From contig MNWT01000005.1 in NCBI GenBank assembly GCA_001872735.1, positions 205,312-269,311 on the forward strand: a DNA stretch of 64,000 nt. The letters run 5' to 3'. Shown here one piece after another: positions 4,347 to 38,206 of this stretch; within the stretch, counting starts at the first letter, position 1, and each line of letters opens with the position of its first letter. Position numbers and translations under genes: made by a program. The notes beneath the pieces are model-generated. The model was not told the DNA's origin. It saw only the letters and a program-made list of their open reading frames with translations, and searched no databases. The stretch is from Verrucomicrobia bacterium CG1_02_43_26 (lineage in GTDB: Bacteria; Verrucomicrobiota; Verrucomicrobiia; Opitutales; CG1-02-43-26).

Positions 4347-5018
4347 ATGAACAAAAAACTATTAACTATATTGATCGCAGCAGCTTCCTTCGTTGGTGGC
4401 CAAGCGTTCGCAGGTGATTCTGACTTCTACGTAGCCGGTTTCGGTAACGGTGGATGGCATAATGACTCCAGCATCAAAAACATTGGTGTAACAAACAAAA
4501 CTCAGTACAAGTTCGGCTTCGGCGGTGGTGTAGCAGTTGGCTATATCTTCGAACAAATCCGTTTCGAACTTGAAGGTTCATACCGTCAAAACGACATCAA
4601 GAAAAGCACTGTTACAGGTCTTACCCTTAATAAAGGTAAAGGCAATGTAAATTATGCTTCTTTGATGGCTAACGTTTACTACGATATTCCTGTTTCTGAA
4701 GACTTCTACGTTTACGTAGGTGCGGGTGCCGGTGTTGCTCAAGAGAAAATCAAGAACGACATGATTGCATCTCCTGCAACAACAATTGCTAACTACAGAA
4801 GCACAAGAACAGTGTTTGCATGGCAAGCAATGGTTGGTGTTGGTTACAATATCAATGAAGATGTTGCTATCTATGCTGGATATCGCTTATTCGCGGTTCC
4901 TTCACACAACATCAAGCGTTTCACAACAACAGCTGCGGGTGGTTCAATCAACTCCAAAGCTAAGATGAAGGACGCTTACATTAACAATCTTGAAATCGGT
5001 ATTCGTTACCGCTTCTAA
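4347..5018 (+). CDS. Outer-membrane beta-barrel protein, paralog 2
   Basis: Signal peptide MNKKLLTILIAAASFVGGQAFA. Alternating-hydrophobic beta-strand pattern, conserved blocks GGGVAVGYIFEQIRFELEGSYRQN, NVYYDIP and YVGAGAGVAQ, terminal RYRF. Confidence 0.88.
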   Translation: MNKKLLTILIAAASFVGGQAFAGDSDFYVAGFGNGGWHNDSSIKNIGVTNKTQYKFGFGGGVAVGYIFEQIRFELEGSYRQNDIKKSTVTGLTLNKGKGNVNYASLMANVYYDIPVSEDFYVYVGAGAGVAQEKIKNDMIASPATTIANYRSTRTVFAWQAMVGVGYNINEDVAIYAGYRLFAVPSHNIKRFTTTAAGGSINSKAKMKDAYINNLEIGIRYRF

Positions 5019-5073
5019 TTGTTAGTTGTTTTAAGCTAATTTACAACCCGCTTCATTTGAAGCGGGTTTTTTT
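5019..5073 (+). repeat. 55-nt 3'-UTR/terminator block, copy 1 (copy 2 at 5862-5916)
   Basis: TTGTTAGTTGTTTTAAGCTAATTTACAACCCGCTTCATTTGAAGCGGGTTTTTTT occurs identically right after the stop codons of paralogs 2 and 3. Confidence 0.95.
5045..5073 (+). terminator. Rho-independent terminator after OMP paralog 2
   Basis: AACCCGCTTCA-TT-TGAAGCGGGTT stem followed by a T7 run. Confidence 0.85.
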
Positions 5074-5097
5074 ATAAAAAAAATAAAGCGAAAAACA

Positions 5098-5127
5098 TTG
5101 ACCTTGTAGCGCAAAAGTAATTAAATA
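5098..5127 (+). promoter_or_regulatory. Putative sigma70-type promoter for OMP paralog 3
   Basis: TTGACC (5098-5103), a 17 nt spacer, then TTAAAT (5121-5126), about 40 nt upstream of the ATG at 5169. Confidence 0.35.
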
Positions 5128-5168
5128 TTGGCTCGTTTCATAAACAATAAACCTAACGATAATATATT

Positions 5169-5861
5169 ATGAATAAAAAACTACTAACAATACTAATAGC
5201 TGCAGCTTCCTTTATTGGCGGCCAAGCTTTCGCTGGTACTTCTGACTTCTACGTAGCCGGTTTCGGTAACGGCAGCTGGCACAATGATTCTAGCTTGAAA
5301 AATCTTAATCTTGCAGGCCTAAACACGCCTAACACAACCGAATACAAATTCGGCTTGGGTGGTGGTGTTGCCGTAGGTTATATCTTCGATCAAATCCGTT
5401 TTGAAATTGAAGGCGCATACCGTCAAAACAATATCAAGAAGACAACAGCATCTATTTTAGGCATCAATGTGCCTCTTAACAATGGCAAAGGTCATGTAAG
5501 CTACGCTTCCTTGATGGCTAACGTTTACTACGACATCCCTGTTTCTGAAGACTTCTATGTTTATGTAGGTGCTGGTGCAGGTGTTGCTCAAGAGAAAATC
5601 AAGAACGACATGGTTTCTCCTACAGTAGGAACAATTGCTAACTACAGAAGCACAAGAACTGTCTTCGCATGGCAAGCAATGGCGGGCGTCGGCTACAATA
5701 TCAATGAAGATGTTTCTATCTATGCTGGATATCGCTTATTCGCAGTTCCTTCACACAACGTAAAGAAGCTCACATTCGCTGGCACAGGAGTTACTTCCAA
5801 AGCTAAGATGAAGGATGCTTACATTAACAATCTTGAAATCGGTATTCGTTACCGCTTCTAG
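5169..5861 (+). CDS. Outer-membrane beta-barrel protein, paralog 3 (recent duplicate of paralog 2)
   Basis: The signal peptide and predicted beta-strand segments are near-identical to paralog 2. Differences cluster in the predicted loops. Terminal RYRF. Confidence 0.88.
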   Translation: MNKKLLTILIAAASFIGGQAFAGTSDFYVAGFGNGSWHNDSSLKNLNLAGLNTPNTTEYKFGLGGGVAVGYIFDQIRFEIEGAYRQNNIKKTTASILGINVPLNNGKGHVSYASLMANVYYDIPVSEDFYVYVGAGAGVAQEKIKNDMVSPTVGTIANYRSTRTVFAWQAMAGVGYNINEDVSIYAGYRLFAVPSHNVKKLTFAGTGVTSKAKMKDAYINNLEIGIRYRF

Positions 5862-5916
5862 TTGTTAGTTGTTTTAAGCTAATTTACAACCCGCTTCATT
5901 TGAAGCGGGTTTTTTT
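5862..5916 (+). repeat. 55-nt 3'-UTR/terminator block, copy 2
   Basis: Base-for-base identical to 5019-5073 by direct reading. Confidence 0.95.
5888..5916 (+). terminator. Rho-independent terminator after OMP paralog 3 (identical copy of 5045-5073)
   Basis: Same stem-loop plus T7 run. It is part of a 55-nt block identical to 5019-5073. Confidence 0.85.
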
Positions 5917-6057
5917 GTGCCTGTTTCGCTATCATATTTAATAACGTATAGGAGCTAAGGCAATGTTGAGTTGACAAGCTCTTGAAAAAACACCTGTATA
6001 GATGGTAGGATTAAATCCCTAAACCATTTCCTCAAAACCTCAGAACCGTTTATCAGC

Positions 6058-6711
6058 ATGAAAAAACTCTTATTCCTCACGCTCACCGCTGGAATTTTAT
6101 CAGCTCTTGGAATAAAGGCCTTCGCAGATGCCCAAACCGATTATTATTACGATGATATAAATTTAGTAGATCAAAACTTCTACGTAGCAGCCTCGGGTAG
6201 CGTTAACTTTCACGACAAAATCAAAACACGTGGGCAAACCCCTAACGTTTCATACCAATTTCAAACAGGTGCTGGCTTTCATGGTTCTGCAGGTATGCAT
6301 TTCTGGCAAAATTTCCGAGCTGAACTCGAGTTTTCATACTTAGCTCAAGCGCTAAATAAAGCAGGGGGTGTAAGCGCAAGTGGTCGCCTCGAATATATTA
6401 ATTTCCTGATCAACCTCTTCTACGACTACGAAATCGTCAACGGGCTAGACGTTTACTTCGGTGTTGGCGGCGGCTACTCTCTTGCCAGAATGTTTAGGGT
6501 GACAGGAGGCGCAGGCCCACGGGTTGGCAAAGGTGATGACAGTTTGTTTGCCGGGCAAGTTATGATCGGGCTGGCTCAAAATTTAAACGCAGAATGGAAC
6601 ATCTGGGGCGGCTACCGCTTATTAATGGCTACACGTCCAACTTTTAGCAACGTGCGCTTTACCAACCCATTTGTCCACATGGTGGAAATTGGCTTACGCT
6701 ATGATATATAA
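6058..6711 (+). CDS. Outer-membrane beta-barrel protein, paralog 4
   Basis: Signal peptide MKKLLFLTLTAGILSALGIKAFA. Family blocks FRAELEFSY, NLFYDY, YFGVGGGY and GGYRLL. The C-terminus is GLRYDI. Confidence 0.82.
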   Translation: MKKLLFLTLTAGILSALGIKAFADAQTDYYYDDINLVDQNFYVAASGSVNFHDKIKTRGQTPNVSYQFQTGAGFHGSAGMHFWQNFRAELEFSYLAQALNKAGGVSASGRLEYINFLINLFYDYEIVNGLDVYFGVGGGYSLARMFRVTGGAGPRVGKGDDSLFAGQVMIGLAQNLNAEWNIWGGYRLLMATRPTFSNVRFTNPFVHMVEIGLRYDI

Positions 6712-6735
6712 ACCAAGTTTTAGCCTATTTACCTT

Positions 6736-7449
6736 ATGAAAAAAATTTATATCCTGTGCGGGATTCTTTTATTTGCTTGCGGGACATTCCCACAAGCCTT
6801 TGCCAACGATTATTATTACGAATCCGGTGATCCTGCCTTTGATTCCCGACCTGAAGCTTTTCAAAACTGGTACATCGCGTTAACAGGGGCGTTTTCCCAG
6901 CAACAAGATATCAAAACTCGCAATCAATCCCCAAATGCAAAAATTCGATTCAGGACAGGCGAAGGGGGCACTTTTAGTTTAGGACGAATCATTCCTCAAT
7001 ACCCAAGTGTACGCGTTGCCGCAGAGGTCTCATATTTTTACAATAAAGCAGCTTGGGTAAAACCAGATGGGCTAGGTAAATTTACCGCCAAGGGCGCTGT
7101 GGGCTACCTAAATGGTTTTTTAAACGTTTATTATGATATTCAACCGGAAGCTTTTAAAGATTTTTCTGTATACCTCGGTGCCGGCATTGGGTATTCCTAT
7201 GCTATGATTAGCAATATCCGTAATAATACGCTAGGAACAGTGATTAGGGAATCCCAACGTGGTCTGGCCGCCGGCCAAGTGATGGCTGGCATTGGCTACG
7301 AATTCACCCCTTCATGGACCTTAATAGGCGGCTATCGCCTTATGTTTATGGAAAAACCTACTTTTCGCGGGCCAGCAGGAAGCCCCAATGTTAAATTGCA
7401 GCACCCTATCTTAAGTGTATTGGAAGTTGGCTTACGAATTAATATTTAA
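6736..7449 (+). CDS. Outer-membrane beta-barrel protein, paralog 5
   Basis: Signal peptide MKKIYILCGILLFACGTFPQAFA. Blocks NVYYDI, YLGAGIGYSY and GGYRLMF. The C-terminus is GLRINI. It lies 24 nt after paralog 4, so they are probably co-transcribed. Confidence 0.82.
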   Translation: MKKIYILCGILLFACGTFPQAFANDYYYESGDPAFDSRPEAFQNWYIALTGAFSQQQDIKTRNQSPNAKIRFRTGEGGTFSLGRIIPQYPSVRVAAEVSYFYNKAAWVKPDGLGKFTAKGAVGYLNGFLNVYYDIQPEAFKDFSVYLGAGIGYSYAMISNIRNNTLGTVIRESQRGLAAGQVMAGIGYEFTPSWTLIGGYRLMFMEKPTFRGPAGSPNVKLQHPILSVLEVGLRINI

Positions 7450-7598
7450 GCGGGAAAAAACAAAAAAATCATTTTCACAGAAATAACGTTTAAAAAATTA
7501 GAAAATCCGTTTGACATCTTTGAAATATACTTTTTAACTGACAATTAGACTATCCCCTACCAAGGGGTTTGTTAAAACCTAAAAAAAGACAAATTACT

Positions 7599-8285
7599 AT
7601 GAAAAAGAAAATTCTAACCCTATTCTTGGGTCTTTGCGCTAGTGCACTGACACTCGTAGGTGCTCAAAACTCTAACTCAAAAAGCAGCAGCAGCAACTCA
7701 TTCAATATTGATGGTTGGTACCTCGGTGCTTCCGGTTCTGTGGGTTTCCACTCAAACCAAAAGAGCAAAAGTACTCCCACAGGTGCAGCACGCGAAATCT
7801 CATTTAAAACTGGTGGCGGCGGTGCCGTTGCAGTTGGTTTGATGTTCATGGAAAACTTCCGTTTCGAACTCGAAGGTTCCTATCGCACAAACTCTGTTAA
7901 AAAAGCAAGCACCCCAACTACTGGTAAAGCAAATGCTTCCGGTAGCGTTGAGTATACCAGCTTATTAGTTAACGCAGCTTATGACATCCCTGCTTTTGAA
8001 AACGTTATCATCTCCCTCGGTGGTGGTCTTGGCTGGACATATGCTAAAATGGGTAACATCAACCGCGCAGGCGTACGTCTATTAAACAGCCGTGGCGACA
8101 ATGTTCTTGGCTGGCAGTTAATGGCTCAAATTGGTTACATGTTCCAAGAGCAATTCACGCTTTATGTTGGATACCGCTTATTCTCAACAACTCAGCCTCG
8201 CTATCGCAATCCTGCAGGCGGCCAGTTGAAGATGGAATCACCTTACCTACACAATATCGACTTTGGTGTAAGAATTCACCTCTAG
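7599..8285 (+). CDS. Outer-membrane beta-barrel protein, paralog 6
   Basis: Signal peptide MKKKILTLFLGLCASALTLVGA. Blocks FRFELEGSYRTN, NAAYDIP and VGYRLF. The C-terminus is GVRIHL. ATG at 7599 is preferred over the TTG at 7569. Confidence 0.85.
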   Translation: MKKKILTLFLGLCASALTLVGAQNSNSKSSSSNSFNIDGWYLGASGSVGFHSNQKSKSTPTGAAREISFKTGGGGAVAVGLMFMENFRFELEGSYRTNSVKKASTPTTGKANASGSVEYTSLLVNAAYDIPAFENVIISLGGGLGWTYAKMGNINRAGVRLLNSRGDNVLGWQLMAQIGYMFQEQFTLYVGYRLFSTTQPRYRNPAGGQLKMESPYLHNIDFGVRIHL

Positions 8286-23126: not shown

Positions 23127-23846
23127 TTAAGAATCAGACAGCATTTGTCTCAGAGCCATAGCTCGTCGCTGCCAAATACCGGCGTTGGGCATCTGCCCGA
23201 TAGAGACTAACCTCATCATACCAGCCTTGTCTTGACCGTCTTTCATTAACAACAGGGCTAAATGATAGGCTGCTTCAGCACGATATGCGCTCATCAAACG
23301 ATCATCGCTTACAATTTCTTCCAAAAGCATTCTGCCTTGCTCATCATTACCGGATAAAATAGTCGCCATTCCGATTCCTAGCCGCGCGCGGCCTGCGAGA
23401 AAGTTCTCCTTTAAGCCCGCTTTTGACTTTTGATACCAGGTCAGTGCATTTTTATAATCACCTTCGCTGTATGCGCTATCTGCAAATTCTAGCATCGTCA
23501 CTGCGGCTAAAATTTCATTTGGGTTGGCTTTTACAAAAGCCTCTTGCTGCGCTTTCGTTTTTGCGGCAACAAAGGCCTTCTGTACCTTTGACGCATGCCA
23601 GCTTTGGTATAAATTCACCCCAGGAATAGCCAATCCTAATAATACGACCACAACAATAACAGAAGTGATTAGGCGTTTGTTATTTTTGAGAAAAATCCAT
23701 AATTTATCCTCAAAAGAAGATTGTTGAAAAACACCTTCAATCACATTACCGGCGCTTTCGCCTTTGCTATGATGTTTCTTACCATGGGGAGCTTTATGAT
23801 CCTGAGTCATGTAAACCATTAGGCTAAAAAAGTTCTCATCGGTCAA
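23127..23846 (-). CDS. TPR-repeat membrane-anchored protein (YfgM-like architecture)
   Basis: Basic N-terminus, a single TM helix (LITSVIVVVVLLGLAIPGV), then TPR-like helices. The start is ambiguous: TTG at 23846, or ATG at 23819 or 23810. Confidence 0.6.
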   Translation of the reverse strand: MTDENFFSLMVYMTQDHKAPHGKKHHSKGESAGNVIEGVFQQSSFEDKLWIFLKNNKRLITSVIVVVVLLGLAIPGVNLYQSWHASKVQKAFVAAKTKAQQEAFVKANPNEILAAVTMLEFADSAYSEGDYKNALTWYQKSKAGLKENFLAGRARLGIGMATILSGNDEQGRMLLEEIVSDDRLMSAYRAEAAYHLALLLMKDGQDKAGMMRLVSIGQMPNAGIWQRRAMALRQMLSDS

Positions 23847-23908: not shown

Positions 23909-25648
23909 TCACACAAGGTTTTCTTGAAGCATAAGATTCGTATTGCCGTTGCCCCCATTATTAGGTGTCGTTACTTGAGAGTTCGATTCTTGCATCATTT
24001 TCCGTAAGGCCTCTTGAAGGCTTGTGCTTTGGGTATTAGCTAACATTTGTTCTAAATCTTCAAGCCTTTCGTTGCGTTGTCTACGCTGAGGAAGCACCCA
24101 GCGTTTACGAACACACCAAACAATGACATCAATGGGAGCCCCTATAATCATTCCTATAACAGCCAGAATTACGCCTCCACCTAAGCTTTCTAGAGACTCC
24201 ACAAAAGCTTTTGCGGTCGCATCCGTAATATTACTATTAATTGTTGTAAATAAAGCCTTTATAACTGATCCCAAAACATATGTGCCAAGTAAAAACCCAC
24301 ACAAACCTCCTATTGCCGTAAATTTCCAGCCACTATTCCAAAGCCACTTAATAGCTCGAGTAACGAGCTCAGTTGGACTTGAAGGGGCGCTTGTGTTAGC
24401 CGTGTTATTATTTGCATTCTCAACATTCCCACCTTCTTGATTGGTTCCGGTTTCATTTTGCCCTCCACCCAGAACCTCGTCTATACTGGTACCGAAGTCA
24501 GACGTAAACCATCCACCAGCTCCATTGGTCTCTAATTTTCGGGATAGGCGTTTATTTTTCTTAATCAAATCAGCAATCAACGTCAACATCTCCTCACGCT
24601 CTTTTTCGTGTGGATCAACCTCTTCCTCTTCCCTAGGACTCTGAACTTTTTTTAATTCTTCAGAAACCCTTTTCTCCATTTTGTTTATAATCTCATGATT
24701 ACATTCCATCTGGCTTTTTGTTTTATTGCCACGTTGCTTCTTAAGATCTTCTTTTACTTCCTCAGTTGCACCTGTTAAAAACTCCACTAATTTTGTCTTC
24801 AAAAACTTGTCCACTTGATCTTCATCTAGAAGAACTTTTTTTTCATACTCCTCCCTTTCATCATTCTGATTTTCAATATCGCTCACTTCTATCGCCTTCT
24901 CATTACCTACCTCTGTCTTCTCCCTCTTGGTTGACAACCTCAAGATCTTTTCCTTTGTACGGCTTTCTAACTCAAGATCTTTAGTCTTTCGCATCTCTCT
25001 TGATTTCTTCAAGCTTCTTGCCTGCTTTACGAAATTATCTATCAATCTTTTTTGATTTTCTTCCAATTCCTTTTCTTTCGGTTTCTCCTCAATAATTATT
25101 TCCTCCTTTTTGATGGTATCGATAATTTTTTCTTCAACAATCTCTTCGTTAACGGATATGTTCTCTTCTTTCTTTTCTTCTTCAAGGTTGATCAATCTTT
25201 TTTCCTCTAGAATAGAGTCTTTGCGCTCCACTAACAAGTTTTCGTGATCATTCCCCCTGCCGTCAGGGGTATTTTTTCCTGAGCTTATTTTCTCCTCCTC
25301 TTCCACTATTTTCTTAGATACTTGGTTTACGACTTGCCCCAGAAGCTCCCACATATTTCGTTTAGATTCTTTCTCCTCTAAGCGTTCATTGCTTTCCTCA
25401 ACCTCCTCCGTCTTTACCTCTTTTATATCTAATAAATTTTCCTGGTTAGATCTAATATCAATAACGATCTCATTTATATTGTTATTTTTATCAAATTTCT
25501 GCTCTTTGATCTTGGGTGTATTAGGATCGTCTTTAACAATCGTCACGCCACTCTCGTTCTGCTTTAAATTTTCCTTTTTACTATTTTTCGTAGGAGTGTT
25601 TACGGGTGAATTCTTATTACTGCCAGTAGATTTCTTAAATATATTCAT
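23909..25648 (-). CDS. Lys/Glu-rich low-complexity protein with a C-terminal double-TM hairpin (hypothetical)
   Basis: Long uninterrupted ORF of about 580 aa. The first about 400 aa are E/K/N/I-rich and look like coiled coil. Then come a G/N/T-rich linker and two TM helices (FTAIGGLCGFLLGTYVLGSVI and GGVILAVIGMIIGAPIDVIVWCV). ATG at 25648 is preferred over the TTG at 25678. Confidence 0.7.
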   Translation of the reverse strand: MNIFKKSTGSNKNSPVNTPTKNSKKENLKQNESGVTIVKDDPNTPKIKEQKFDKNNNINEIVIDIRSNQENLLDIKEVKTEEVEESNERLEEKESKRNMWELLGQVVNQVSKKIVEEEEKISSGKNTPDGRGNDHENLLVERKDSILEEKRLINLEEEKKEENISVNEEIVEEKIIDTIKKEEIIIEEKPKEKELEENQKRLIDNFVKQARSLKKSREMRKTKDLELESRTKEKILRLSTKREKTEVGNEKAIEVSDIENQNDEREEYEKKVLLDEDQVDKFLKTKLVEFLTGATEEVKEDLKKQRGNKTKSQMECNHEIINKMEKRVSEELKKVQSPREEEEVDPHEKEREEMLTLIADLIKKNKRLSRKLETNGAGGWFTSDFGTSIDEVLGGGQNETGTNQEGGNVENANNNTANTSAPSSPTELVTRAIKWLWNSGWKFTAIGGLCGFLLGTYVLGSVIKALFTTINSNITDATAKAFVESLESLGGGVILAVIGMIIGAPIDVIVWCVRKRWVLPQRRQRNERLEDLEQMLANTQSTSLQEALRKMMQESNSQVTTPNNGGNGNTNLMLQENLV

Positions 25649-25940
25649 AAATCCGGGGTATTTTTGGGGTTCAATCAATCTTCAGAATCGAAGCTGATTC
25701 ATTTGGGGTACAAGACGTTATAAATAAATAATTTTTCTTAAACTAGCAAACGTTTCTTGAAATTCATGAGTTCACTCAAATAATAATCCGTATCATTTTT
25801 TGGTTCTAAAATGCGTATCTGTTTTTTGGATACTTTCTCCATTGATGCAAAACATCAACTATCATAAGCGCACGTAAACAGGGTTTACAATTAAAGCAAA
25901 AGTCATCTCAAAGACCCTCCATACACCCAAAAATCCGTAA

Positions 25941-25969
25941 TTGACCTCCACCCCCTAAGTAATTGTAAT
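25941..25969 (+). promoter_or_regulatory. Putative promoter of the folPBK operon
   Basis: TTGACC (25941-25946), a 17 nt spacer, then TGTAAT (25964-25969). Only 9 nt separate the -10 element from the folP ATG. Confidence 0.3.
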
Positions 25970-25978
25970 ATAACAGGT

Positions 25979-26806
25979 ATGGACAATCACACAGATCTCT
26001 TTTCTACTGCCCCCTACCAGATTATGGGCATCCTTAATGTTACCCCGGATTCTTTCTCTGATGGAGGCAAGTTCACAGATCCCTATCGCGCCTTAGAGCA
26101 CGCCAAAAGCATGGTCTTGGCCGGTGCCACAATCGTAGATATTGGAGGAGAATCTAGCAGACCCGACCACACACCTATCACCGAGACCGAAGAACTTAAA
26201 CGCGTCATCCCTATTATTGAGTGCCTGGTAAAACAAATTCGCATTCCAATATCCATAGACACTTGCAAATCAAATGTCGCTGATGCCGCCCTCAAAGGAG
26301 GCGCCAAGATAGTTAATGACATCTGGGGCTTCCAAAAAGACGCAAAAATGGCTCATGTTGCAGCTAAACACAATGCCAGAGTCATTCTCATGCACAATCA
26401 AGAAGGTACTTTCTATCCAGGAGATTTAATAGACTCCATAAAATGTTTCTTAAACAACTCTATCAAGATTGCGACTGATGCAGGCGTCCCTGAAAGTCAC
26501 ATCTGGCTAGATCCTGGGTTCGGTTTCGGCAAAGATCCGGATCAAAACATGGAACTCCTCGGTCGCCTCGATGAAATCGTAGCCATGGGTTATCCAGTCG
26601 TCCTGGGTACGTCGCGTAAGTCCACATTGAGTTCCTTACTTAATCTCCCCCCAAAAGAGCTTGCAAGCGCTACTGCAGCAACTACTGTCATGGGAATGGC
26701 TGCCGGCGCATCTATCTTTCGTGTCCATGACGTTAAAGATAACTACCGTGCCATGAAGGTTGCTGAAGCCATTTTAAAAAGAAAACAAGAACCGGTCCCG
26801 GCTTAA
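25979..26806 (+). CDS. folP: Dihydropteroate synthase
   Basis: IMGILNVTPDSFSDGG, DIGGESSRP and DPGFGFGK motifs. Confidence 0.95.
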   Translation: MDNHTDLFSTAPYQIMGILNVTPDSFSDGGKFTDPYRALEHAKSMVLAGATIVDIGGESSRPDHTPITETEELKRVIPIIECLVKQIRIPISIDTCKSNVADAALKGGAKIVNDIWGFQKDAKMAHVAAKHNARVILMHNQEGTFYPGDLIDSIKCFLNNSIKIATDAGVPESHIWLDPGFGFGKDPDQNMELLGRLDEIVAMGYPVVLGTSRKSTLSSLLNLPPKELASATAATTVMGMAAGASIFRVHDVKDNYRAMKVAEAILKRKQEPVPA

Positions 26807-26809
26807 AAG

Positions 26810-27169
26810 ATGGATGCGATTATCTTAAAAGGAATGACTTTTTTCGGCCACCACGGCTACTTCCCAGAAGAGCGCAAGCTTGGACAAAAGTTTATAGTTG
26901 ATCTTGAGCTTACGCTAAACCTCAAGCCCGCCGGAGAAAGCGATGATATCACCAAATCCGTCAATTACGCCGAGATATTCCAATTGATTAAAGAAACTGT
27001 AGAGCAAACCCAATTCCACCTTATCGAAGGGCTTGCAGAACACATTAGCACGCTTCTTTTAAAAAACTATTCCCTTATTCAGGAAATCGCCCTAACCATA
27101 ACAAAGCCCTCGGTAGCCATTCAGGGCATTTGTGAGTCAGCAGGCATCAGACTCAACAGAAAGCGATAA
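26810..27169 (+). CDS. folB: Dihydroneopterin aldolase
   Basis: 119 aa with GHHGYFPEERKLGQKF, typical of FolB. It lies between folP and folK. Confidence 0.9.
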   Translation: MDAIILKGMTFFGHHGYFPEERKLGQKFIVDLELTLNLKPAGESDDITKSVNYAEIFQLIKETVEQTQFHLIEGLAEHISTLLLKNYSLIQEIALTITKPSVAIQGICESAGIRLNRKR

Positions 27170-27594
27170 TGATGACGGAGGCTTATATTGCCCTCGGTAG
27201 CAACTTAGGCGACCGTAACGACTATTTAAACAAAGCTATTGGGCTCTTAGCAGAGACTGATGGCATCACCTTAAGGGCAACTTCGTCTTACCACGAAACA
27301 GAGCCTGTTGGCTATCTCGATCAGGGAATGTTTTTAAACGCTGTTGTGCTATTAGACACAACCCTTTCTCCTCACGAGCTTCTAGCTCGCTGCCAACAAA
27401 TAGAACAACGTTTAGGCAGAGAACGTCCTTTTCAGAACGCACCCAGAACCATCGATCTCGATATCCTTCTCTACGGCACGCTAGAAATGAACGGTGCCGA
27501 ACTCATCATCCCTCACCCTCGCATGATGGAGCGTTCCTTCGTACTCCTCCCGCTCAACGAAATCATGGTGACTCATAGCCTATACCTAGTGTGA
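27169..27594 (+). CDS. folK: 2-amino-4-hydroxy-6-hydroxymethyldihydropteridine pyrophosphokinase
   Basis: YIALGSNLGD, RTIDLDILLY and PHPRMMERSFVLLPL motifs. TAATG overlap with folB. Confidence 0.93.
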   Translation: MMTEAYIALGSNLGDRNDYLNKAIGLLAETDGITLRATSSYHETEPVGYLDQGMFLNAVVLLDTTLSPHELLARCQQIEQRLGRERPFQNAPRTIDLDILLYGTLEMNGAELIIPHPRMMERSFVLLPLNEIMVTHSLYLV

Positions 27595-27704
27595 TAATCG
27601 CATATTGTTGTAAAAATATTACATTATTTTCTTGTTTTTTACAGAAATTATTCATAACGTAAAAATAACCCCTAAAGCCATACTATAACCTCGCACAACA
27701 ACAA

Positions 27705-28697
27705 ATGAACAGAGGATGGTTTATGAATACACAACTGAGCAGGCTAAACTCTATGCCTATCCTTCGCAGAAGAGAAAGCATAGAAAAAACGATTGAAGAA
27801 AAAAAGGAAACCGTTTTTGAGGAAATCAAGAATGAAAAAAAAGAAACGCTGGATATTCCACTTTTGGATTTATCTTCCCTTAATAAAAAGCTTAATAAAA
27901 CTGGGCTCAAGGAAGGTGAATACCAAATCGTTATCTTAGATGAGCAATTAGAGGATCGCAAGGTGAGCAAAGAAGACAATCTTCTTGAACTGAAACGAGA
28001 TATCAAGAAATTGGTAACCAAAAGCAAGAGCGATTCGGCTTTAAAACGCAGATCCCTTCAAATTGAAAACAAAGAGCAACAAATAGTGAACAGGCTCTCT
28101 TTATCGCCAACGTCCATACGCATGCAGCTTAGTAATGGTAATGAAATCATCACTAAAGAAGTCATCTCCCACAATCAACCAATTATCATCAACATACTCA
28201 ATGAACATTCGTGCTCTTCAGGTAAATCCAGCAGAAGGGGATCAACAGATAGTAGCAGTAGTCGACCATCAATCGATTTTGATGAGATAAAAAGCATAAC
28301 AGATGGGGACGGCATAAACCTGCTCAGCAAAGGACCATCGGTTGTCGCAAGCTCGCTCAAGAACATTGCCGGATTCATGCCAAACTACGGCATCTTTATG
28401 GTTTCAGGGGGAACGCTTTGTTTCATCGTTGGATTGGGCGTGGGCGCTGCTGTCGGTGTCGCTGCAGAAGGTGTTGGCGTTGTACCCGGCATGGCAATTG
28501 GAGGCGCTAGCGGCCTCATTCTTGGTATTACAGGAGGCCTGGCGATCGATGTTGGAATTACGGTCACCAAAAAAATCATTAAACATGTAAAAAAACAACA
28601 GGCACTTAAACAACAAACCCAAAACAGGATTAAGAAGCAACCTTCTCTGGTAGAAAAAACGATTAGTCGAATACTCCCCAAAAAGGCTACTATTTAG
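27705..28697 (+). CDS. Lys/Glu/Ser-rich protein with a C-terminal glycine-zipper double-TM hairpin (hypothetical)
   Basis: 330-aa ORF. It has an E/K-rich N-terminus, a Ser-rich stretch (SSGKSSRRGSTDSSSSRPS), a bilobed hydrophobic segment (GIFMVSGGTLCFIVGLGVGAAVGVAAEGVGVVPGMAIGGASGLILGITGGLAIDVGITV) and a basic tail. Confidence 0.7.
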   Translation: MNRGWFMNTQLSRLNSMPILRRRESIEKTIEEKKETVFEEIKNEKKETLDIPLLDLSSLNKKLNKTGLKEGEYQIVILDEQLEDRKVSKEDNLLELKRDIKKLVTKSKSDSALKRRSLQIENKEQQIVNRLSLSPTSIRMQLSNGNEIITKEVISHNQPIIINILNEHSCSSGKSSRRGSTDSSSSRPSIDFDEIKSITDGDGINLLSKGPSVVASSLKNIAGFMPNYGIFMVSGGTLCFIVGLGVGAAVGVAAEGVGVVPGMAIGGASGLILGITGGLAIDVGITVTKKIIKHVKKQQALKQQTQNRIKKQPSLVEKTISRILPKKATI

Positions 28698-28721
28698 CAA
28701 CTTACAAATAGTTCGATCCCT

Positions 28722-28762
28722 AAAAGAGGCGATACAAACAGGCTTGTATCGCCTCTTTTTTT
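28722..28762 (+). terminator. Rho-independent terminator
   Basis: AGAGGCGATACAA-ACAGGC-TTGTATCGCCTCT stem followed by a T7 run. Confidence 0.85.
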
Positions 28763-28862
28763 ACAACGCACGCACTTTTTGTTTGTTTTTCAAACTATAA
28801 ATATTTAACTTAAACCCTAATCCCCTAACAAACCCTAACCTTAAAAAAAAGGAGATAAGCAT

Positions 28863-30173
28863 ATGTCTGATATTAAAACTGGCAGTAAAAACACTTCCCC
28901 CAATATATCACCGATTCTTAAAAAGGAAGAACTTGAGAATCTAGAGGGTATCTTTGATGAAAAAAAGGTAGAGTCGCAGAATTCCAGCACCAAGAAAACA
29001 CCTCGAAAACAGGGTGACCTGAACCTAAGCAATGAAAATCTTTTCAGCAAAGAAGTTTTCAATATCAGCTCTACTCTTTTAGAAAAAAATGATGAATTAA
29101 CCAAAAAGCTCGATGAAAAAACTAAAGAAGAGCTTCTCAAGAAAGAGACAAAGATCCTCAAGCTAAAAGACGAACTCAAAAAGAAGGACGACGAACTCAA
29201 AAGGAAGGACGACGAGGTCACTAAAGTAAAAGAGGAGCTTAATAACTCTCAATTAAGCGTAGAAGACGATGAAGAGGTGGGCGAACTCGCAAAAAATTAT
29301 ATTAAAAGAAAAGAAACCAAACTCGAAAACCTCACAAAGAATGGTGTACACGAATTTATAAAGAGTAAAATCAATACTTTGGGTAATAATCTTTTAAAGA
29401 GTCCACAGGAATTATTCGATGGGTTCGTAAAGGCTGCGGAACAGATCGTCAGTAAAGATCCTACGGATCTTACAAAAGTAGCAACTGAAATTGCAAAATC
29501 GCCTCTACTTACACCTGTTTTAGCAAAACTGGATCTTAATCCGGCAAAATTTGCTGAATTCTTTCTAGACAAGGTACAAAAGGACTTGAAGCAAGTTGAT
29601 GACGATTTCAAAGATGAAAAAAAGCCTGACTTTTCCAAAAAAGAACAAGTTGTTGATAAACTGATTGAAGTTTTTGCAGACAAAATGCTAGACACACTTT
29701 TAGGGTATGACGTAACGGAACGTGATCCGAGCTACAAAGCCGTAGTCAACATTCTGAAATTCAGCAAAGACTATGTGGGAAGCATCTTCTTGCCTTCATT
29801 GACCAATGAGACGACTAAGGATCTCTCTGAGCGTGCTGTAAAGGACCTTACGAGCTATCTTGGCCCTGTAGCACCGCTTGCGAGAATGGTCACTAGCTTC
29901 TTTAATACGGTTGCAGGCCCGTTCTTGCCTAAAACAAGCTGGTCCGGCTTACTAACGGGGGTGACCACAACGGCCGGTATCTATCTGGCCTACAGCAAGC
30001 CTTCCTTCCTGTTAGATACTATAACAACCTACTCTAAAAAGTATTCCGAAAACGTGGTCTATGGCGCCTTTGGCATTGTAGGAGCGGGATTGGGGTTCAC
30101 TGGGGAATGGTCTATTTACCTGGTTAGCCTGATGCTTGGCAAGCTCTTTGGTAATAAGGAAAAAATGGCTTAA
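28863..30173 (+). CDS. Lys/Glu-rich coiled-coil protein with C-terminal TM segments (hypothetical)
   Basis: 436-aa ORF preceded by a strong AAGGAGAT Shine-Dalgarno sequence. It has a K/E/D-rich N-terminus with a DELKKKD/DELKRKD repeat. The C-terminus has hydrophobic segments GLLTGVTTTAGIYLAY and VVYGAFGIVGAGLGFTGEWSIYLVSLMLGKLF. Confidence 0.7.
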   Translation: MSDIKTGSKNTSPNISPILKKEELENLEGIFDEKKVESQNSSTKKTPRKQGDLNLSNENLFSKEVFNISSTLLEKNDELTKKLDEKTKEELLKKETKILKLKDELKKKDDELKRKDDEVTKVKEELNNSQLSVEDDEEVGELAKNYIKRKETKLENLTKNGVHEFIKSKINTLGNNLLKSPQELFDGFVKAAEQIVSKDPTDLTKVATEIAKSPLLTPVLAKLDLNPAKFAEFFLDKVQKDLKQVDDDFKDEKKPDFSKKEQVVDKLIEVFADKMLDTLLGYDVTERDPSYKAVVNILKFSKDYVGSIFLPSLTNETTKDLSERAVKDLTSYLGPVAPLARMVTSFFNTVAGPFLPKTSWSGLLTGVTTTAGIYLAYSKPSFLLDTITTYSKKYSENVVYGAFGIVGAGLGFTGEWSIYLVSLMLGKLFGNKEKMA

Positions 30174-30195
30174 GACCGCTATTTAATCGGCTTTA

Positions 30196-30238
30196 ACGAC
30201 AAAAAGACCTTCCTCGGTGAGGAAGGTCTTTTTGTCGT
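30196..30238. terminator. Bidirectional-looking terminator hairpin 1 between convergent genes
   Basis: ACGACAAAAAGACCTTCCTC-GGTG-AGGAAGGTCTTTTTGTCGT is a perfect long stem with an internal A-run and T-run. Confidence 0.75.
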
Positions 30239-30243
30239 TATTA

Positions 30244-30279
30244 GGGCATAGTTTGTTCCAGGTGGAACAAACTATGCCC
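30244..30279. terminator. Perfect 17-bp inverted repeat (hairpin 2) between convergent genes
   Basis: GGGCATAGTTTGTTCCA-GG-TGGAACAAACTATGCCC. There is no flanking T-run, so the terminator function is uncertain. Confidence 0.45.
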
Positions 30280-30376
30280 TGAAAGAGTGAACATAAGATC
30301 ACCCCAGAAACAACCCTACGCCCTTATGCCTTTAGTAGAATTTTTACATAAAAAAACAAACAACTAGGTGTTTATT

Positions 30377-37810: not shown

Positions 37811-38206
37811 TTAGAAAAGCTTTCTCTTAAAAGCTGGGTTAGTATTATTCTGTTGGTTGGCTAGATGGGCTTGCCTATTTTCCAGATAAAGGCATTTTGA
37901 ATCTAGGTGCCGGGGTGTCGTTTCTTTGACCCGAGAAATACCGGTTAAATCAGGCTTTGGTGGAGCAAATTTAACAACTGGTTTTTTAACAGTTATCTTT
38001 TTTGTTATTTTCGAAGGTTTAGAGATCTTATTCTTTTGCTCTGTTTCATTAAGGTTTATCTTCAAGTTCTTTTTAAACAACTGGGAAATTTCCTCCTCAG
38101 TAATGTCCTTGATCTTGTCGCCCTTGTTTTCAGATTTATTATCTTTTTTATTCTGGATATTTTGGGAAGGAACATATCCACCACCAATGTTAATTTTATT
38201 ATTCAT
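37811..38206 (-). CDS. Lys/Asn-rich basic hypothetical protein
   Basis: 131-aa ORF in an AT-rich stretch, with no TM helix and no recognised motif. An alternative-frame ORF on the opposite strand makes the coding status less certain. Confidence 0.45.
   Translation of the reverse strand: MNNKINIGGGYVPSQNIQNKKDNKSENKGDKIKDITEEEISQLFKKNLKINLNETEQKNKISKPSKITKKITVKKPVVKFAPPKPDLTGISRVKETTPRHLDSKCLYLENRQAHLANQQNNTNPAFKRKLF

Follow-up and report, generated by a model that had tools for sequence, protein, structure and literature searches.

We analysed three low-complexity genes, here called A, B and C, that lie on either side of the folate genes folP, folB and folK in a 64-kb stretch of DNA from Verrucomicrobia bacterium CG1_02_43_26, an uncultured organism known as a metagenome-assembled genome (MAG) from Crystal Geyser groundwater (taxid 1805421; unclassified Verrucomicrobiota at NCBI). 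This stretch, the part of the genome covered, is called the window below and holds 62 genes. Gene A is on the minus strand (23909-25648; 579 amino acids (aa), OIO60751), and B (27705-28697; 330 aa counted from the first ATG) and C (28863-30173; 436 aa, OIO60756) are on the plus strand; FolP (OIO60752) is encoded between A and C, at 25979-26806. The sequences of A, C and FolP match these entries of the MAG exactly, and its contigs reach up to 559 kb. A first-pass annotation made by eye had pointed to these three open reading frames (ORFs) in what it took to be a bacterium of the Planctomycetes-Verrucomicrobia-Chlamydiae type. The host assignment agrees with the taxonomy, and the coordinates are confirmed by public annotation for A and C. 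The frame of B is also confirmed, but its 330-aa length differs from the public annotation, which starts at M7 (324 aa) or M17 (314 aa).

The three frames are not due to chance. Calculated from the base composition of each gene, the probability of the frame staying open is 3e-21 for A, 3e-10 for B and 7e-14 for C, and no shuffled version had an open frame of more than 211 codons, against 330-579 codons in the genes. The sequences are identical or one residue apart across many Crystal Geyser samples. Their occurrence within 7 consecutive genes of the 62 is only mildly unusual (p about 0.02). The Lys/Glu-rich character noticed at first reading is borne out by counting: Lys and Glu together make up a fraction of 0.26 of A, 0.18 of B and 0.23 of C, while the other ~58 ORFs of the window range from 0.03 to 0.20 (mostly 0.06-0.17). 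The N-terminal domains of all three proteins are strong polyampholytes, with a charged fraction of 0.34-0.46 and a net charge near zero.

In A, a Glu/Lys-rich polyampholyte of ~375 aa is followed by a linker rich in Gly, Ser, Asn and Thr (residues ~375-425), two transmembrane (TM) helices and a 67-aa tail that begins with RKRWVLPQRRQRNER. The hydrophobic hairpin (24113-24316, minus strand) is formed by TM1 at residues ~445-463 and TM2 at ~488-512, joined by a loop of ~24 aa with a net charge of about -1, and its outer ends are both flanked by basic residues. In B, the N-terminal region is charged and leads through a Ser-rich linker into a glycine-zipper hairpin, after which comes a tail rich in Lys. 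Its hairpin (28389-28559, plus strand; residues ~229-285) has helices at 230-254 and 262-285 connected by a loop of about 7 residues, with the turn E255-GVGVVP-G262; it contains 26% Gly and seven GxxxG motifs, compared with three each in A and C. The tails that follow the hairpins of A and B are 45-67 residues long and open directly behind TM2 with a basic cluster, which amounts to +7 over 18 residues in A and +6 over 17 in B. Upstream of TM1 there is a modest surplus of basic residues in both proteins, and the loops are neutral or acidic. Neither A nor B has a signal peptide or any N-terminal hydrophobic segment.

Are these helices hydrophobic enough to reside in a membrane? We judged them against controls from the same window, namely the TM helices of MacB and EamA and the buried helices of the soluble proteins FolP, AroA and RecA; the comparison with the controls outweighs the absolute numbers. 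KD19 values of 1.7-2.1 and a summed Hessa-type dG of 1.1-2.2 put the helices of A (445-463 and 488-506) and of B (230-248 and 263-281) on a level with the genuine TM helices of MacB and EamA. The candidate helices of C reach KD19 values of only 0.8-1.25, with a summed dG of about 5, and overlap the buried helices of FolP, AroA and RecA. The first-pass annotation had attributed one architecture to all three proteins: a long charged region, a G/S/N/T-rich linker, paired hydrophobic GxxxG helices and a basic tail. All of this holds for A and B, whereas C departs from it, with marginal helices, no linker and a tail of only 7 residues.

The long charged regions had also been described as coiled coil or disordered. 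In a crude heptad score compared with shuffled sequences, periodicity was above shuffles in C, at residues 93-138, and not in A or B, whose N-terminal regions are more aptly called charged, helical or disordered. AlphaFold2, run on single sequences without an alignment, modelled B as antiparallel helices at 229-256 and 262-311 that turn at VGVVP, with a basic tail helix of pLDDT 80-85.

The low-complexity N-terminus of C is followed by a heptad coiled coil, by ~200 aa that are all-helical and by two marginal C-terminal helices. The coiled-coil-like helix spans residues ~58-138 (29034-29276, plus strand), and in the AlphaFold2 model of C a long helix at 58-128 is the sole moderately confident element (pLDDT 63-83), in agreement with the heptad score. 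Within this segment, at 29169-29215, a 21-nt tandem repeat is present in 2.2 copies that are 96% identical and encode DELKKKD/DELKRKD. The duplication of this heptad is recent and accords with a rapid evolution of low-complexity sequence. The C-terminal helix pair (29934-30143, plus strand; residues ~358-376 and ~401-427) is moderately hydrophobic and rich in Gly, Thr and aromatic residues.

C is the one gene for which relatives were found. An exhaustive HMMER search with residues 140-436 returned exactly one match, P0009 (E 3.4e-8), and pairwise comparison of the two proteins gives E 4e-17 with 26% identity over 266 residues. P0009 is encoded at positions 1037-2173 of a 36-kb Logan contig, L021 (SRR31776075), from a related uncultured bacterium. 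Gene order on this contig is the same as in the window: P0009 is followed by plsC, cmk, aroA, tyrA, a PIN/YacL-like gene and N_methyl, whose products are 64, 62, 62, 45, 74 and 71% identical, respectively, to those of the window. Because of this shared order, P0009 qualifies, on sequence and position, as the syntenic ortholog of C, and C diverges far faster than its surroundings (26% versus 45-74%). A partial ORF (L021:2-811), cut by the contig end, lies just 5' of P0009, at the position that B occupies in the window. Its product matches P0009 over the C-terminal 105 residues (E 1e-9), which makes the two paralogs, and both show a pattern of a TM-like helix, the motif FFxxYSxxLxFDKNH, a helix rich in Gly and Ala and, at the end, NKEK. 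A strong terminator hairpin separates these tandem copies, and the C-terminal helix arrangement of C is kept in both.

C, P0009 and L021:2-811 form a new small, clade-restricted family, which C joins through its similarity and through its position upstream of plsC-cmk-aroA-tyrA; A and B are not members, as judged by hhalign and by a hidden Markov model (HMM). A syntenic ortholog at 26% identity, together with a tandem paralog, indicates that C is a real gene, retained across species and poorly constrained. The contig ends before the folPBK region. Other places gave no further family member: no C-like gene is present in the more distant relatives L022-L024, the only ones that a PIN/YacL scan turned up, which keep the order aroA-tyrA-x-PIN and encode a PIN protein 52-53% identical to that of the window; an Opitutaceae locus with pabABC-folPBK (L013) has no charged flanking genes; a folP scan of GTDB representatives turned up no close relative, and a cmk scan of metagenomes gave no match.

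The two orthologs also share a feature upstream of their coding sequences. At 28776-28845, 5' of C, a 13-nt block TTTTTGTTTGTTT is accompanied by three imperfect CCCTAA units. The identical block occurs 5' of P0009 (L021 ~960-1030), where a C-rich CCCCCAACCCCAA stretch precedes the start codon; the rest of the window shows no enrichment of the block. It is a possible promoter or regulatory element kept by both genes.

Do A, B and C belong to a single family? We rejected this. Pairwise BLASTP comparison of the three gives no significant match, the best being E 0.089 between A and B over the G-x-x-IDV stretch; comparing the C-family alignment with A and B in hhalign yields a probability below 1%, and with an HMM built from the C-terminus of that family neither protein scores above shuffled sequences (p 0.12-0.13). 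The G-x-x-IDV motif itself, which the first pass had read as common to A and B, does not reach significance (shuffle p 0.056, besides the BLASTP value above) and varies within the population, GAPIDV being replaced by GAPTDV in P0002. No N-terminal motif common to A, B and C survived the shuffle tests. Two further candidates were considered: an N-terminal KNS..KENLxQNxxG likeness between A and P0009 (p 0.005, uncorrected for 10 tests), in a region where C fails to align with its own ortholog P0009, and an F-x-P-x-x-W/Y motif preceding TM1 in B, C, P0009 and the L021 paralog, for which p is 0.017 for B against P0009 only. These three motifs are weak leads rather than evidence.

Searches against known families agree with the initial impression that no characterised family is involved. 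No entry of Pfam, NCBIfam, PHROG or PADLOC reaches its cut-off with A, B or C, whole or as C-terminal pieces, and no PDB sequence matches at cut-off. The nearest entries fall short. A scores 10.9 bits against Glycine zipper 2TM (PF05433) at full length and 13.8 bits with its C-terminal 150 aa (at TM1), for a gathering cut-off of 24.2, and neither B nor C matches this profile. B scores 18 bits against DUF6861 (PF21724; E 0.002, over 36 residues of the hairpin), which drops to 9.6 bits for the C-terminal part alone, for a gathering cut-off of 28. PF05433 (the Rick_17kDa_Anti / SlyB-Pcp type) and DUF6861 are families of outer-membrane lipoproteins with a lipobox signal peptide, and resemble A and B in having two short Gly-rich helices; A and B differ in lacking such a signal peptide and in scoring far under the gathering cut-offs. 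Two holin profiles were also approached below threshold, phrog_1350 by A (E 0.01) and Phage_holin_3_6 by the C-terminal part of B (E 0.023; 15.2 bits, cut-off 28.4). All these near misses are compositional. No SNARE or syntaxin Pfam entry matches A, B or C at E values up to 1. In a word-indexed search of 5.8 billion clustered proteins, A, B and C match only themselves.

The first-pass annotation had further remarked that the genes are more AT-rich than their housekeeping neighbours and that the third has a strong Shine-Dalgarno sequence where most others have none; both remarks hold. The GC content of A, B and C is 0.38-0.42, against 0.43-0.48 in neighbouring genes. The deficit lies mostly at codon positions 1 and 2, the third position being only slightly lower, and the choice among synonymous codons for Lys, Glu, Asn and Asp is as in the neighbours. 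The low GC is therefore a consequence of amino-acid composition and not of foreign origin, and we rejected recent horizontal transfer as its source. The Shine-Dalgarno sequence of C, AAGGAGAT, is located at 28849-28856 on the plus strand, 6 nt 5' of the ATG. Of 61 window genes scored, only 4 have a core of at least 5 nt near a candidate start (those at 28863, 43846, 53188 and 55529).

A and folP are divergently transcribed across a 330-bp gap, in which no riboswitch or other RNA was matched in Rfam. A is co-directional with pfkB and with a gene for a YfgM-like TPR membrane protein. The latter (23127-23846, minus strand) lies directly 3' of A; its product has an N-terminal TM helix and a TPR_21 (YfgM-like) match with an E value of 0.003, below the cut-off, and the gene may be co-transcribed with A and pfkB. 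B begins 110 bp 3' of folK, with no terminator in the gap, and is followed by an intrinsic terminator (28722-28759, plus strand) made of a perfect 16-nt inverted repeat and a T-run. Since this terminator separates them, B and C belong to different transcription units, and C has its own upstream region in addition to its Shine-Dalgarno sequence. Two perfect hairpins with arms of 22 and 18 nt (30194-30280), between the convergent genes C and plsC, are probably terminators. An imperfect 24-nt inverted repeat, 79% complementary and with its halves ~1.56 kb apart (28779-28802 and 30340-30363), brackets C and these hairpins, and could be a chance occurrence in AT-rich DNA.

Around these genes the window is of a housekeeping nature. 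It contains rpoB, ribosomal protein genes, nusG, secE and tuf; neuB and glycosyltransferase genes; MacAB-TolC and pfkB; folP-folB-folK; plsC, cmk, aroA and tyrA; recA, xseA, fabF and acpP; and feoAB. The metabolism that it encodes (folate, shikimate and fatty-acid synthesis, together with RecA, FeoAB and efflux) is ordinary and autonomous. No secretion-system genes (type III included), phage genes or mobile-element genes are found in the 64 kb, an Rfam scan of the window returned only tRNAs, and there are no lysis or immunity genes near A, B or C. An origin in a phage, plasmid or defence system was rejected: tblastn found nothing of A or B in phage records or of C in plasmid records, and PADLOC was empty. 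This housekeeping context, along with the native-like synonymous codon usage, argues against recent import.

The explanation that we favour, tentatively and as something short of probable, is that A and B reside in the inner membrane, held there by C-terminal hairpin anchors, that C is a helical protein of a tiny family, and that the three are unrelated, lineage-specific and fast-evolving genes. For want of any N-terminal hydrophobic segment, the N-terminal domains of A and B (225-440 residues) should not be exportable by Sec. The basic flanks and the neutral or acidic loop would, by the positive-inside rule, place both termini in the cytoplasm, so that only the 5-24-residue loop of the hairpin would cross the membrane. 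The hairpin could insert post-translationally, as in tail-anchored proteins; moderately hydrophobic bacterial tail anchors do insert unassisted in vitro (PMC6794478). Its GxxxG or glycine-zipper faces probably pack the two helices against each other, and might also lead the proteins to self-associate. The long N-terminal domains, charged and either helical or disordered, would stand out from the inner membrane face and serve as spacers, scaffolds or platforms for binding. Topology, insertion mode, oligomerisation and scaffold role are all properties that we infer for A and B. For C, with its only moderately hydrophobic helices, contact with the membrane may be peripheral or conditional. The suggestion in the first pass of a novel envelope or compartment scaffolding function may be right and comes close to this explanation. 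A, B and C are novel in sequence and conceptually ordinary as hypothetical membrane proteins, and we see no sign of a new mechanism.

Several points weigh against this interpretation. The overall confidence of the AlphaFold2 models is low (pLDDT 48 for B and 43 for C), and the topology of A and B rests on hydropathy and the positive-inside rule. Going by their hydrophobicity, the C-terminal helices of C may not be embedded in the membrane at all. The orphan status of A and B is weak because the word-indexed search, which was their sole test, missed P0009, the ortholog of C. Finally, the scaffold or spacer role is a generic notion.

Is there a precedent for such a design? The hairpin of B aligns with that of syntaxin 17 (Stx17), an autophagosomal SNARE of eukaryotes, better than shuffled sequences do (p about 0.01). 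The glycines at positions 244, 248, 264 and 268 of the Stx17 sequence used agree with PMC5839791. Stx17 has a helical/coiled-coil cytosolic domain, two close glycine-zipper TM helices packed as a hairpin and a short basic tail, and its hairpin inserts from the cytosolic side (PMC5839791). B has the same order of domains, with two C-terminal glycine-zipper helices and a basic tail, and A resembles it in part, having three GxxxG motifs. The differences are that the host is a bacterium, that no SNARE motif or Habc domain was detected, and that A and B show no heptad signal. Since the similarity lies in composition and pattern, the likeness of B to Stx17 is convergent and not homologous. The closest bacterial precedent is given by magnetosome proteins of the MamD, MamG and Mms6 type, in which non-homologous, low-complexity soluble N-domains are carried on a moderately hydrophobic, Gly-rich C-terminal helix with GxxxG motifs (PMC11628618). 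Their N-domains, however, are Ala-rich or acidic and precede a single helix, while those of A and B are Lys/Glu-rich and precede two; and the magnetosome proteins are encoded in an island with MamF-like insertion factors, of which there is none here.

The first-pass annotation had leaned towards a comparison with chlamydial inclusion-membrane (Inc) proteins. As translocated effectors, the proteins would be exported by a type III, IV or VI system, the hairpin would insert into a host or prey membrane and the charged domain would lie in the foreign cytosol. A and B do have the bilobed domain and a long helical hydrophilic region, and their loops of ~24 and ~7 residues fall within the Inc definition of two TM helices of 15-32 residues with a loop shorter than 30, as worded in PMC3048545; the helices of C (KD19 0.8-1.25) may be too weakly hydrophobic. 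Like Inc proteins, which share an architecture without mutual sequence similarity (PMC3656976), A, B and C are lineage-specific and unlike one another in sequence. C outpaces its neighbours in divergence, as PMC3048545 suggests for host-exposed proteins, and the N-termini of A and C are rich in Ser, Thr, Asn, Pro and Lys. Yet PMC3048545 also describes Inc proteins as specific to Chlamydiae and localised to the inclusion, and places the hydrophobic domain of CPn1054 and CPn1055 near the N-terminus, whereas the host here is a groundwater MAG of unclassified Verrucomicrobiota and the hydrophobic domain of A, B and C is C-terminal. Autonomous metabolism, a window devoid of secretion-system genes, native codon usage and the failure of N-terminal motifs to survive shuffling (the lone nominal match being that of A with P0009) also oppose an effector role, which is unsupported and distinctly unlikely. 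A broader version is less likely still: A, B and C would be the first fast-evolving set of hairpin-anchored charged/coiled-coil proteins outside Chlamydiae to act on a membrane other than the ordinary inner one, either by delivery to a host or prey or by shaping or tethering internal membranes of a PVC-type cell with wedge-shaped glycine-zipper hairpins, in the manner of Mic10 and the reticulons of eukaryotes. If this very improbable reading were true, genes of this kind would have a hot spot between folK and plsC, to which the tandem paralogs of the relative would also belong.

Glycine-zipper hairpins could also oligomerise into pores, like glycine-zipper channels already known, and depolarise the producer or a competitor, which would make the proteins membrane-active toxins or holin-like. 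The dense GxxxG repeats of B, the two sub-threshold holin matches and the presence of glycine zippers in membrane proteins that form pores (Kim et al. 2005, as cited in PMC11628618) point this way. The matches, however, are far under curated cut-offs, and A, B and C, at 330-579 aa, are 5-10 times the size of holins and have cytoplasmic domains of 200-430 aa; none of them has the profile match, the length of roughly 70-150 aa or the lysis-cassette context by which a holin is recognised. With phage, lysis, immunity and secretion genes absent nearby, and the phage, plasmid and PADLOC searches empty, we consider a toxin or holin function very unlikely. A comparison can also be made with stress or stationary-phase hydrophilins. 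In ElaB, YqjD and YgaM (DUF883), a hydrophilic helical cytoplasmic domain is tethered by a Gly-rich C-terminal anchor with basic residues behind it; in E. coli, ElaB and YqjD end in anchors of the GxGxGAAxGxxxG-RR type. A and B follow the same logic, with a charged domain that would bind ribosomes or protect the membrane and a Gly-rich anchor as tether, and unassisted insertion is possible for moderately hydrophobic bacterial tail anchors (PMC6794478). The E. coli-type proteins, though, measure about 100 aa and carry a single TM helix at their very C-terminus, whereas here there are two helices followed by tails of 45-67 aa in proteins 3-6 times the length of ElaB; and no DUF883/ElaB match is found in Pfam for A, B or C, even when the C-terminal pieces are scanned at E 10. 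This kinship is unlikely, and would in any case be a special case of the inner-membrane anchor that we favour. Lastly, the genes might be young or nearly unconstrained, low-complexity ORFs of no specific function at a variable spot between housekeeping operons. The lack of homologues of A and B in the word-indexed search, the mere 26% identity of C with its ortholog, the recent expansion of the 21-nt repeat and a fourth Asn/Lys-rich orphan ORF at 37811-38206 are in keeping with this. Frames of 330-579 codons that remain intact are not, nor are the conservation of the C-terminal architecture and terminal NKEK of C across species and paralogs, its own terminator and rare strong Shine-Dalgarno sequence, or the near-identity of the sequences across many Crystal Geyser samples; we regard it as unlikely.

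Should A and B be the hairpin-anchored inner-membrane proteins that they look like, non-model bacteria would make hairpin-type tail-anchored proteins with glycine-zipper anchors, a design known mainly from syntaxin 17, chlamydial Inc proteins and magnetosome proteins. They would then offer simple test cases for post-translational insertion and for disordered charged domains at the inner membrane face. C and P0009 provide a clean case in which position and architecture are kept at 26% identity, next to neighbours at 45-74%, and show that word-indexed searches overlook such orthologs.

Three further observations concern other parts of the window. The fourth low-complexity orphan ORF (37811-38206, minus strand) encodes 131 aa and has a GC content of 0.35; its product has neither a hydrophobic segment nor a Pfam match. 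FolP finds its best match among GTDB species representatives in Firmicutes (Alkalibaculum, 56% identity), with others in Clostridia and Tissierellia, and is only 45-47% identical to the proteins of Opitutales relatives; this affinity could reflect a horizontal origin of folP, or close relatives of the lineage may be unsampled. Directly 3' of the cluster of tuf, secE, nusG and ribosomal protein genes, at 4347-8285, lies an array of five tandem paralogs encoding small outer-membrane beta-barrel proteins (Pfam OMP_b-brl / Surface_Ag_2) of 217-238 aa each.

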